Shown here in pieces: positions 722 to 1,812 of a stretch of 13,480 nt of DNA (the stretch's first letter is position 1; every line of letters begins with the position of its first letter). Source of the DNA: Clostridia bacterium (GTDB lineage Bacteria > Bacillota > Clostridia > Christensenellales > Aristaeellaceae); contig JAUNDF010000051.1 in assembly GCA_030526225.1 (NCBI GenBank), forward strand, positions 2,066 through 15,545, given 5' to 3'. The notes below the pieces were generated by a model. That model was not told the origin of the DNA. It ran no database searches and worked only from the letters and a program-made list of their open reading frames with translations. The position numbers and the translations under genes were made by a program.

Positions 722-1812
722 GCGAGCGCATTGTGGTAGGCATGTCCGGCGGCGTGGATTCCTCGGTGACCGCGCTGCTCCTGAAGCAGCAGGGCTACGA
801 TGTGGTGGGCGTGTTTATGAAAAACTGGGAGGAGAAGGACGAAAACGGCACCTGCACCGCTGAAAGCGATTGGAGCGATGTGCGCGAGGTCTGCGACCTG
901 ATTGACATCCCCTACTACTCCGTCAACTTTGCCAAGGAATACTGGGACCGCGTTTTCTCCTATTTCCTGGATGAATACAAAAAGGGCCGCACCCCCAACC
1001 CGGATGTGCTGTGCAACCGGGAAATCAAGTTCCGGGCTTTCCTTGATTTTGCCATGCAGCTGGGGGCCTCCAAAATGGCCACCGGCCACTTTGTCCAGAC
1101 CGACGGCATGGGCCATCTCCTGCGCGGCGCAGACCCCAACAAGGACCAGAGCTACTTCCTGTACATGCTCAAAAAGCATCAGCTGGAAAAGGCAATGTTC
1201 CCCGTGGGGCATCTGACCAAGCAGCAGGTGCGGGAGATTGCGTAGAAAAACGGCCTGCCCGTCAGCAAAAAGAAGGATTCCACCGGCGTATGCTTTATCG
1301 GCGAGCGGAACTTCAAGCAGTTCCTGTCCGGGTTTATGCCTGCCCAAAAGGGCGATATGGTGGCCCCCGACGGCACGGTGGTGGGCACCCATGACGGCCT
1401 GATGTACTACACCCTCGGTCAGCGCCGTGGCCTTGGCATCGGCGGCTGCGGTGACGGCCGCAGCTGGTTTGTCATCGGCAAGGACCTGCTGCGCAACCGC
1501 CTGCTGGTAGCTCAGGGTGATGACCATCCCATGCTGTACTCCACCCTTGCGGTGGGCACCGATGTCACTTGGGTGGATGATGCGCCCATCACCGCGGGTC
1601 AATCCCTGACCTGCACCGCCCGCTACCGCTACCGCCAGCCCGACCAGCCCGTCACCGTCACCCTGCAGGAGGACGGCACCTTGAGCATCCGCTCCCTGGT
1701 GCCCCAGCGCGCCGTTACCCCCGGCCAAAGCTGCGTCCTCTACGCCGGCGACACCTGCCTCGGCGGCGCCATTGTGGATAAGGTGCTGGACGCAGGGGAA
1801 GTGGGGATTTAA
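718..1812 (+). CDS. mnmA: tRNA 2-thiouridine(34) synthase MnmA, one reading frame interrupted by a single in-frame TAG at 1243-1245
   Basis: Track ORFs 718-1245 and 1336-1812 are in the same frame. The PP-loop GMSGGVDSS and the first catalytic Cys motif [12 protein letters not shown] lie upstream of the TAG. The uncovered stretch 1246-1335 translates in frame as [30 protein letters not shown], the second catalytic Cys motif DSTG(I/V)CFIGER. The total of 364 codons matches the roughly 365-aa MnmA length. There is a GAGGAGG SD before the ATG and the stop is TAA. A table-11 annotator would call this a split gene or pseudogene. Confidence 0.9.
1243..1245 (+). other. In-frame amber (TAG) codon inside mnmA
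   Basis: The context is gag att gcg TAG aaa aac ggc, and the frame is conserved on both sides. By my recollection the aligned residue in E. coli (KIAEDLGL) and B. subtilis MnmA is Glu. Confidence 0.9.

Follow-up and report, generated by a model that had tools for sequence, protein, structure and literature searches.

In-frame TAG codons in mnmA and two other genes of an uncultured gut Clostridia bacterium: a candidate sense reading of TAG

mnmA and its in-frame TAG

We analyzed a stretch of 13,480 nt (contig JAUNDF010000051.1 of assembly GCA_030526225.1, positions 2,066 to 15,545, forward strand), referred to here as the window. It carries 11 genes, among them mnmA, rsgA, and a gene for a GT39/PMT_2-type membrane glycosyltransferase (Table 1); tmk, rpe, a GT2 gene, and a glycan cluster are also present. 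Coding potential and gene calls were obtained with a codon log-odds caller, which reproduces the genes of the window. ORF-merging screens were discarded because they were swamped by the conserved antisense ORFs of GC-rich DNA.

Table 1 Features of the TAG-bearing genes (positions are those of the window)
Feature	Position	Strand	Remarks
mnmA (tRNA 2-thiouridine synthase)	718..1812	+	364 codons in a single frame, 1 internal TAG; true stop TAA at 1810-1812
PP-loop SGGVDSS (ATP-binding), residues 10-16	745..765	+	Upstream of mnmA TAG
MnmA motif with Cys99	1000..1032	+	Upstream of TAG; aligned with solved MnmA chains
In-frame TAG, MnmA residue 176	1243..1245	+	GAG (Glu) in nearest relatives; 0 mismatches in Logan contig L082
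MnmA motif with Cys192	1276..1308	+	Downstream of TAG, upstream of next ATG at 1336
Terminator-like hairpin and T tract	1824..1861	+	After mnmA TAA, not after TAG
Promoter-like site for next gene cluster	1894-1922		Downstream of mnmA hairpin
GT39/PMT_2-type membrane glycosyltransferase	7558..9189	+	543 codons, 1 internal TAG
In-frame TAG, glycosyltransferase residue 156	8023..8025	+	Homologue column mostly E or Q; 0 mismatches in Logan contig L081
rsgA (ribosome small-subunit-dependent GTPase A)	11956..12834	+	292 codons, 1 internal TAG
In-frame TAG, RsgA residue 180	12493..12495	+	E or D in closest homologues; GAG in L088, GAC in L087

Single-frame translation of mnmA meets one internal stop, the TAG at residue 176; under translation table 11 the frame is interrupted there, and a public gene caller gives a 175-amino-acid product. 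Joined across the TAG, the translation matched Pfam tRNA_Me_trans (PF03054) at residues 4 to 195 in one stretch (E = 2.9e-81). The central PRC-barrel domain (PF20259, residues 200 to 266) and the C-terminal beta-barrel domain (PF20258, residues 281 to 353), both tRNA-binding, lie downstream of the TAG. Alignment to solved MnmA structures (PDB 9hlv, 2hma, and 2der) covered the whole protein (residues 3 to 362), with Glu opposite the TAG. The features of the MnmA family, a PP-loop ATPase (HUP) domain, both catalytic Cys residues, and both C-terminal domains, are all present. We take Cys99 and Cys192 to be the counterparts of E. coli Cys102 and Cys199, respectively.

An earlier note on this DNA had placed the second catalytic Cys motif between 1246 and 1335, after the TAG and before the next ATG, and had held that no standard ORF covers it. 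The motif does fall inside that interval, which contains no in-frame ATG, GTG, or TTG. Motif and Pfam positions also bear out its account of the possible partial products: one ending at 1242 would lack Cys192 and both C-terminal domains, and one restarted at 1336 would lack the PP-loop and both cysteines. Activity of MnmA therefore calls for translation of the TAG, as the note proposed; evidence that this takes place is indirect, though consistent. A restart or split-gene model was rejected on the same lack of an in-frame start; the TTG ORF at 1238 to 1402 lies in another frame, none of the 120 homologues is split, and neither is any of the PDB chains.

In the 120 closest homologues the TAG column holds E (67 sequences), A (31), Q (9), R (6), K (5), T (1), and G (1). 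The counts agree with the alignment of the TAG to Glu given in the note and with its expectation that K, Q, and R are tolerated at this position.

The same pattern in two further genes

Three of the 11 genes in the window contain exactly one in-frame TAG each, in every case inside a Pfam domain that is matched as a single stretch, and homologues align without a gap across all three TAGs. In the glycosyltransferase, the PMT_2 (136 to 248) and PMT (107 to 248) matches both span residue 156, and 29 homologues align across the codon. In RsgA, the TAG is spanned by RsgA_GTPase (61 to 221). The G1 P-loop (12442 to 12465) is encoded upstream of it; downstream come G2, the DTAG motif, and a C-terminal stretch rich in Cys and His, which we read as the zinc-binding motif. 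Read-through of the mnmA TAG, as the earlier note proposed it, is thus supported. The note treated it as a matter of mnmA; with two more genes showing the same pattern, it seems instead to reflect how this organism decodes TAG.

No in-frame TAA or TGA, frameshift, or indel was found in the genes of the window. Near-invariant residues were kept on both sides of the codon (upstream, 123 of 124 in MnmA and 76 of 80 in RsgA; downstream, 96 of 99 and 67 of 69). For mnmA, the branch length of the C-terminal part was 2.2 times that of the N-terminal part, a ratio within the 5 to 95% range of its relatives (0.62 to 2.66). Every TAG had positive, same-frame coding potential before and after it, at 0.52 and 0.46 per codon for mnmA. 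The relaxed constraint past the lesion and the mixed lesion types of pseudogenes were both absent from these genes.

Local signals were also sought. Predicted RNA structure after the TAGs was not significant (fold z = 0.27, -1.58, and -0.78), no Rfam match was found near them, and no PYLIS-like structure was found downstream. A cis-acting recoding element was rejected on the negative folding and Rfam results, and decoding of TAG appears to be independent of context, since neither significant structure nor an Rfam match accompanies the codons. The base after each of the three TAGs is A or C. [quoted passage not shown]

All three TAG sites are variable, tolerant columns. Glu occupies each of them in the nearest homologues and is the top residue at each of the three columns, three being the whole sample; the glycosyltransferase column is mostly E or Q, and the closest homologues of RsgA have E or D. 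Gln is second to Glu at the glycosyltransferase column and a minority residue at the other two. In relatives the codon at the mnmA site is GAG, and that at the rsgA site is GAG or GAC. When the one-base neighbor codons of TAG were weighted by their use, the chance that all three TAGs would derive from GAG was (118/640)^3 = 0.006. A profile-based posterior over the three columns gave E 0.54, K 0.11, and Q 0.08, so that the sites jointly favor Glu, weakly. The caution that the encoded residue could not be deduced from the mnmA site alone was well placed.

Terminators, relatives, and alternative explanations

TAG terminates none of the 10 complete genes in the window, and TAA terminates 6 of the 11. 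Scarcity of TAG terminators extends to the relatives: they account for 1 of 143 gene families (about 0.7%) in the loci of the closest relatives, 3.1% of 257 families across the clade, and 0 of 45 database gene calls. Since standard-looking relatives without internal TAGs share it, the lack of TAG terminators in the window is uninformative, and we set it aside as evidence once this was apparent. The scarcity is of interest whatever decoding this organism uses.

The internal TAGs, in contrast, were seen only in this organism among the sequences compared. The window has 3 in 4,407 codons, and the 93,404 codons aligned from relatives contain no internal stop (Fisher P = 9e-5). No internal stop was found in 80 GTDB relatives, and in tblastn of seven syntenic genes against 86 loci, the window and its Logan copy alone had internal stops. 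TAG recoding common to the relatives was considered and rejected; the abutting same-frame ORF pair in one relative's locus (L075) is two separate genes. There are no tRNA genes within the window or in the relatives' loci examined, none of 85 such loci having a tRNA with a CUA anticodon, and no GGQ-motif release-factor gene occurs in the window or in the relatives' loci examined.

From these sequence comparisons we judge it probable that this uncultured, Christensenellales-like gut Clostridia bacterium decodes TAG as an amino acid genome-wide and does not use it to terminate. Counting against this are the small number of such codons, three in 13.5 kb, the lack of tRNA genes in the window and the relatives' loci, the occurrence of the organism in a single run, the variable and tolerant nature of all three sites, which lie in genes that some bacteria can do without, the weak assignment to Glu, and a low prior: sets of 250,000 and 2.7 million prokaryotic assemblies have been screened with no bacterial TAG reassignment reported.

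We consider it unlikely that the TAGs are nonsense mutations, so that the three genes are recent pseudogenes, yielding no full-length protein, in a lineage that is decaying or has a mutator defect (of the mutY/mutM type, say, with a G:C-to-T:A bias). All three changes look like GAG to TAG, a G-to-T change, relative to the nearest relatives, and several departures from near-invariant residues (four of L to M, and one each of A to S, P to K, and E to D) fit G:C to T:A. mnmA, rsgA, and GT39-type genes are each dispensable in at least some bacteria, and variable columns do not prove that a residue is inserted at the TAG sites. The low prior for a bacterial TAG code favors this explanation too. It would, however, have 3 of 11 adjacent genes affected with no frameshift, indel, TAA, or TGA, no decay in the downstream halves, and no internal stop in any of the relatives' aligned codons. 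Even under a pure G:C-to-T:A spectrum, GAG to TAG makes up 118 of 421 nonsense targets, which gives a P value of about 0.02 for three of three. Nor is there a sign of a raised mutation load. At the conserved nucleotides of mnmA and tmk this lineage has 8 specific changes, of which 3 are C>A, and relatives have about 14 on average, 17% of them C>A; hypermutation or an error load was rejected, the lineage being indistinguishable from its relatives.

Translation of every TAG as pyrrolysine, in a bacterial equivalent of archaeal Genetic Code 34 that would have pylTSBCD elsewhere in the genome, is improbable. Some Firmicutes encode pyrrolysine, and Lys ranks second to Glu in the column profile. Among prokaryotic cells, genome-wide recoding of TAG has been reported only as the pyrrolysine code of archaea, whose features match those seen here and in the relatives' stop use: TAG makes up 5% or less of stop use, ordinary genes contain internal TAGs, and PYLIS is not obligatory. 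Against it, the three sites descend from acidic Glu/Asp positions and not from Lys-like ones, and no methylamine methyltransferase or pyl gene was found in the window or in the relatives' loci. We found no report of pyrrolysine for this clade in the literature searched.

Still less probable is leaky, untemplated read-through, in which release factor 1 (RF1) would be weak or absent throughout the clade and near-cognate tRNAs (Gln, Tyr, Lys, or Trp) would read TAG with no dedicated tRNA. Near absence of TAG stops across the clade would make RF1 dispensable, the A or C after each TAG gives a context of weaker termination in E. coli, and the sites tolerate many residues. Near-cognate decoding is, however, inefficient and costly in engineered RF1-free E. 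coli, relatives with equal depletion of TAG stops have no internal TAGs, and the three ancestral Glu sites (P = 0.006, as above) would be left unexplained.

A separate public assembly of run SRR24915835 has the TAGs at 1243 and 8023 unchanged, in Logan contigs L082 and L081, respectively, which are only about 1.5 kb long and lie inside the window; the two assemblies agree at all 3,124 overlapping bases, these TAGs included, and both presumably come from that run. Protein fragments of the organism are singletons among about 15 billion proteins and come from this one run, two JGI metagenome scans gave no match with TAG at the mnmA and rsgA columns, and no database record matched the GT2 and rpe proteins of the window. 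With a single run, singleton fragments, and no hit in either scan, the TAGs have neither an independent sample nor phylogenetic coherence, the 80 relatives being free of internal stops. A sequencing or assembly artifact, with GAG at all three sites of the real genome (for example, through oxidative-damage G-to-T errors in a low-coverage metagenome), would fit three G-to-T differences, an organism of low abundance, and two assemblies that are not independent, but we regard it as very improbable, since the assemblies are identical, an error rate of the required size would also give TAA, TGA, and many missense changes at conserved sites, the 3 C>A changes are at the level of relatives with conserved residues kept, and random errors would not land three times on Glu codons at variable columns.

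TAG as a candidate sense codon

If TAG is a sense codon here, then mnmA, rsgA, and the glycosyltransferase gene would be intact and would yield full-length proteins. A dedicated tRNA with a CUA anticodon would probably insert a standard residue, for which the aligned columns make Glu our best guess. RF1 would be lost or weakened, with termination left to TAA and TGA alone, both of them RF2 codons. The route was probably codon capture: the surrounding clade would first have nearly eliminated TAG as a stop, and TAG would then have reappeared in this lineage when GAG changed to TAG at Glu positions that tolerate substitution. We infer the suppressor tRNA, the fate of RF1, the inserted amino acid, and the extension of the pattern beyond these 13.5 kb. 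The more specific proposal of a natural bacterial code in which TAG stands for Glu or at least for a standard amino acid, acquired by codon capture in a Christensenellales-like clade already rid of TAG terminators and perhaps of the need for RF1, is one that we advance tentatively, at a little under an even chance.

The bacterial stop reassignments known so far are all reported to concern UGA (Shulgina and Eddy 2021; 2026 gTranslate and KACI preprints). These codes (UGA is Trp in table 4, of Mycoplasmatales and some others, and Gly in table 25, of Absconditabacteria/Gracilibacteria) resemble the window in that an in-frame stop codon occurs in ordinary conserved genes with no local signal. In those genomes the codon has ceased to terminate genes. 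Classically, such codes arise through a new tRNA and the loss of the release factor for that codon, neither of which was observed here. The codon in the window is TAG, so that the factor expected to be lost would be RF1 and not RF2, and the GC content is about 60% rather than low.

Archaeal Genetic Code 34 (bioRxiv 10.1101/2024.09.30.615893) shares with the proposed reading a genome-wide sense use of TAG, a low TAG frequency, TAGs in housekeeping genes, and no need for PYLIS. It is, however, archaeal and dependent on pylTSBCD, whereas the window is bacterial and has no pyl genes, and its TAG columns are Glu, neither uninformative nor Lys-like. Phage code 15, in which crAss-like and other gut phages read TAG as Gln, likewise uses TAG for a standard amino acid in the gut microbiome, by means of suppressor tRNAs. 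It belongs to phage genomes, often recoded in late genes only; the window is a chromosomal segment rather than a phage genome, and its TAG columns favor Glu over Gln.

Natural precedent for TAG as Glu comes from nuclear codes in which UAR stands for Glu, those of peritrich ciliates (table 30) and of Blastocrithidia (table 31) (PMC12153298). Those codes are eukaryotic and reassign TAA along with TAG, whereas the window keeps TAA as a frequent terminator. The architecture proposed here is that of engineered TAG-free, RF1-deleted E. coli (C321.deltaA and later strains, PMC11903333), in which a tRNA(CUA) assigns TAG. Such strains are synthetic, and the organism of the window would be a natural equivalent with a putative RF1 loss. 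In amber suppressor strains (supE- and supD-type), a tRNA(CUA) likewise gives full-length protein from amber genes, but suppression there is partial and coexists with RF1 and many TAG terminators. The TAGs of the window, by comparison, look like neutral replacements of Glu codons.

TAG recoding is otherwise reported only in phages, eukaryotes, and, as pyrrolysine, archaea. The literature searched contains no TAG reassignment on a bacterial chromosome, no genetic code change in Christensenellales, and no mention of SRR24915835; the present case, if true, would be the first of its kind on a bacterial chromosome. A free-living gut bacterium would then add a new bacterial genetic code. It would also provide a natural test of the codon-capture model, as relatives with almost no TAG stops resemble the intermediate stage. 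A natural tRNA(CUA)/synthetase pair and RF1-independent termination would be possible finds in such an organism, of use for genetic code expansion. Gene callers that apply table 11 split genes of this kind, so that the genomes look rich in pseudogenes and lose completeness in databases. In the public collection, the glycosyltransferase as well as mnmA is split by table 11 gene calling.

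In-frame TAG codons in three conserved genes

The only interruption of the MnmA frame is the TAG at 1243-1245. The PP-loop (745-765) and Cys99 are upstream of it; [14 protein letters not shown] with Cys192 (1276-1308) is downstream, as are both C-terminal domains. The earlier note had correctly placed the second-cysteine motif after the TAG and before the ATG at 1336, and there is no in-frame ATG, GTG, or TTG in that interval. Its statement that the TAG column holds Glu and tolerates Lys, Gln, and Arg agrees with the 120 closest MnmA homologues (E67, A31, Q9, R6, K5, T1, G1) and with full-length alignments to solved structures 9hlv, 2hma, and 2der, where Glu is opposite the TAG. 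In the checks that it proposed, Pfam tRNA_Me_trans matched residues 4 to 195 continuously through the TAG, and the nearest relatives carry GAG at the site. A terminator-like hairpin (1824-1853) follows the mnmA TAA, not the TAG.

When the window was re-read with TAA and TGA as the sole stops, two additional pairs of adjacent same-frame ORFs were joined, one encoding a GT39/PMT_2 glycosyltransferase and the other RsgA. In each, the Pfam domain covers the TAG and homologue alignments continue through it. The RsgA P-loop is upstream of its TAG; downstream are G2, the DTAG motif, and a C-terminal stretch rich in Cys and His that we read as a putative zinc-binding motif. The closest relatives have GAG or GAC at the rsgA site, and GT39 homologues (≤39% identity) have mostly Glu or Gln. 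A simple codon log-odds gene caller, which recovers the window's gene set, gave a positive coding score to the sequence on either side of each of the three TAGs, with the frame unchanged; the window has no frameshifts, and neither TAA nor TGA occurs in frame. The earlier proposal that a functional MnmA requires translation of the TAG is supported and extends to these two genes.

TAG occurs 13 times on the + strand of the 13,480 bases (3 in coding frame), versus roughly 160 predicted from base composition alone. Out of frame, TAA is rare like TAG, while TGA is plentiful, with counts of 181 and 75 in the two off-frames.

We consider it probable that TAG is a sense codon genome-wide, likely for Glu; we infer the extent, the tRNA, and the state of the release factor RF1 from three codons in one sample. 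If confirmed, it would add a new genetic code to those of bacteria.

Decay, mutation bias, and known recodings

The three TAGs could instead be real nonsense mutations, which we regard as unlikely. Near-invariant columns are retained after the TAGs (MnmA, 96 of 99; RsgA, 67 of 69) as they are before them (123 of 124 and 76 of 80), and the excess divergence of the MnmA C-terminal half (ratio, 2.2) is inside the relatives' 5 to 95% range. The sequence past the TAGs is not decaying. Of the 10 departures from near-invariant columns, 4 replace Leu with Met (1 in MnmA, 3 in RsgA), and the rest include A to S, P to K, and E to D, which hints at lineage-specific changes with a C-to-A/G-to-T flavor. 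Since several of these departures and all three TAGs are compatible with G:C-to-T:A change, we looked for signs of a mutator or of excess errors at mnmA and tmk nucleotides conserved in ≥90% of 80 relatives. The window has only 8 private changes there, including 3 C>A, too few to establish the C-to-A flavor; this load is not above that of a typical relative, and we rejected a mutator or error load on that ground. Under a pure G:C-to-T:A spectrum, GAG-to-TAG makes up only 28% of nonsense targets, so that three of three has a P of ~0.02.

No stop occurs inside mnmA in 80 GTDB loci. Over seven syntenic genes (93,404 aligned codons), internal stops were confined to the window and its copy in Logan, a separate public assembly: 3 in 4,407 window codons versus 0 in the relatives' 93,404 (Fisher P = 9e-5). 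The closest sequences (MnmA, ≤82% identity; RsgA, ≤76%) come from uncultured gut Clostridia MAGs, mostly from ruminant guts with some human-gut samples, several labeled Christensenellales. Protein fragments from this organism stand as singletons in a set of ~15 billion proteins, and no database records of other window proteins were found.

Bacterial stop reassignments reported so far all involve UGA (Shulgina and Eddy 2021; gTranslate preprint), and a 2026 screen of ~2.7 million assemblies contained no bacterial TAG case. TAG is read as Gln in gut phages and, jointly with TAA, as Glu in some eukaryotes (PMC12153298). Judged from sequence, the present case appears to work like a stop-codon reassignment, although its membership in that class is only partly demonstrated. 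The codon interrupts several conserved genes (mnmA, GT39, and rsgA), but phylogenetic coherence was not seen among the relatives and metagenomes scanned: two JGI metagenome scans of the mnmA and rsgA columns gave no TAG.

In some archaea, TAG encodes pyrrolysine genome-wide (Kivenson et al., bioRxiv 10.1101/2024.09.30.615893). The window shares the pattern that is diagnostic there: genes with internal TAGs, none with an out-of-frame overlap, and little use of TAG. Pyrrolysine in bacteria is reported only for a few methyltransferases and one L-serine dehydratase, and we think this reading of the TAGs improbable.

Probable residue, decoding, and near-absence of TAG as a terminator

Match-state emissions of profiles from the MnmA, GT39, and RsgA alignments gave a joint posterior over the three TAG columns of 0.54 for Glu, 0.11 for Lys, and 0.08 for Gln. 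Because CAG (122), AAG (129), TAC/TAT (176), and TGG (60) are as common in window genes as GAG (118), descent of all three TAGs from Glu codons is unlikely by chance (P of ~0.006 if the residue were irrelevant). The mutational path thus appears to point the same way as the profiles. Glu is our best guess for the residue; Gln, Lys, or pyrrolysine is possible.

Folding found no significant RNA structure downstream of the three TAGs, and there was no Rfam match, so decoding looks independent of context. Near-cognate read-through with no dedicated tRNA is an improbable account. The 13.5-kb window contains no tRNA gene, the 85 relatives' loci yielded no tRNA(CUA), and a search of the window and of the relatives' loci for release-factor genes was negative. 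An artefact is the least credible explanation, as two Logan contigs assembled from run SRR24915835 align without a mismatch to window 5-1526 and 8015-9616 and carry the TAGs at 1243 and 8023, where that collection's gene caller broke mnmA and the glycosyltransferase.

None of 10 window genes ends in TAG. We compared these genes with L001-L080, L083, L087, and L088 (relatives' loci), which likewise almost lack TAG stops: 0 of 45 genes by database calls and 15 of 693 predicted by the codon log-odds caller (family-weighted share, 3.1% over 257 families; 1 of 143 families in the closest loci). The window's count is therefore no evidence by itself, and we dropped it as support for recoding. General TA avoidance is contradicted as the cause by TAA, which makes up about half of stops in the clade at ~60% GC; third-position GC of window genes is ~80%, and overall GC of relatives' loci is similar to the window's. 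These data suggest that the TAG terminator was nearly lost in the clade beforehand and that the whole clade could almost dispense with RF1-dependent termination. In the codon-capture model, such near-loss would be a precondition for the codon's return with a new meaning.

Gene content and layout

Features of the window (GC, ~60%), which carries every gene on the + strand
Feature	Position	Strand	Details
Thymidylate-kinase end of HAD-Tmk fusion gene	2-721	+	ORF continues past left window edge
mnmA	718-1812	+	364 residues, one frame, single TAG
Envelope-glycan cluster, seven genes	1964-11928	+	DUF2142, GT2, GT4, flippase-like Polysacc_synt_3, GT39/PMT_2, GT87-like, membrane protein
GT39/PMT_2 glycosyltransferase	7558-8025 + 8050-9189 merged	+	543 residues, TAG 8023-8025
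rsgA	11956-12834	+	
RsgA	11956-12495 + 12559-12834 merged (rsgA product)	+	292 residues, TAG 12493-12495
rpe	12827-13480	+	

In relatives, Tmk is the C-terminal half of a 423-amino-acid HAD-family hydrolase fusion (L083, 8733-10004) whose stop overlaps the mnmA start (ATGA). The apparent rsgA start is a TTG at 11956, ahead of which AGGAGG (11931-11936) forms a strong Shine-Dalgarno sequence, and alignments of 292-amino-acid RsgA homologues begin at residue 1. Gene order differs from that in L083, L087, and L088: in relatives, rsgA-rpe ends a priA-def-fmt-rsmB-rlmN-PP2C-pknB operon, and tmk-mnmA contigs end 200 to 500 bp past mnmA. In the window, the 10-kb glycan cluster directly bridges mnmA and rsgA (1813-11955), with a gap of only 27 bp before rsgA. 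The cluster may have been horizontally acquired. GC drops to 53 to 55% at 9000-11000, across the GT87-like gene and the next membrane-protein gene (10405-11928, without a Pfam match), from ~60% elsewhere.
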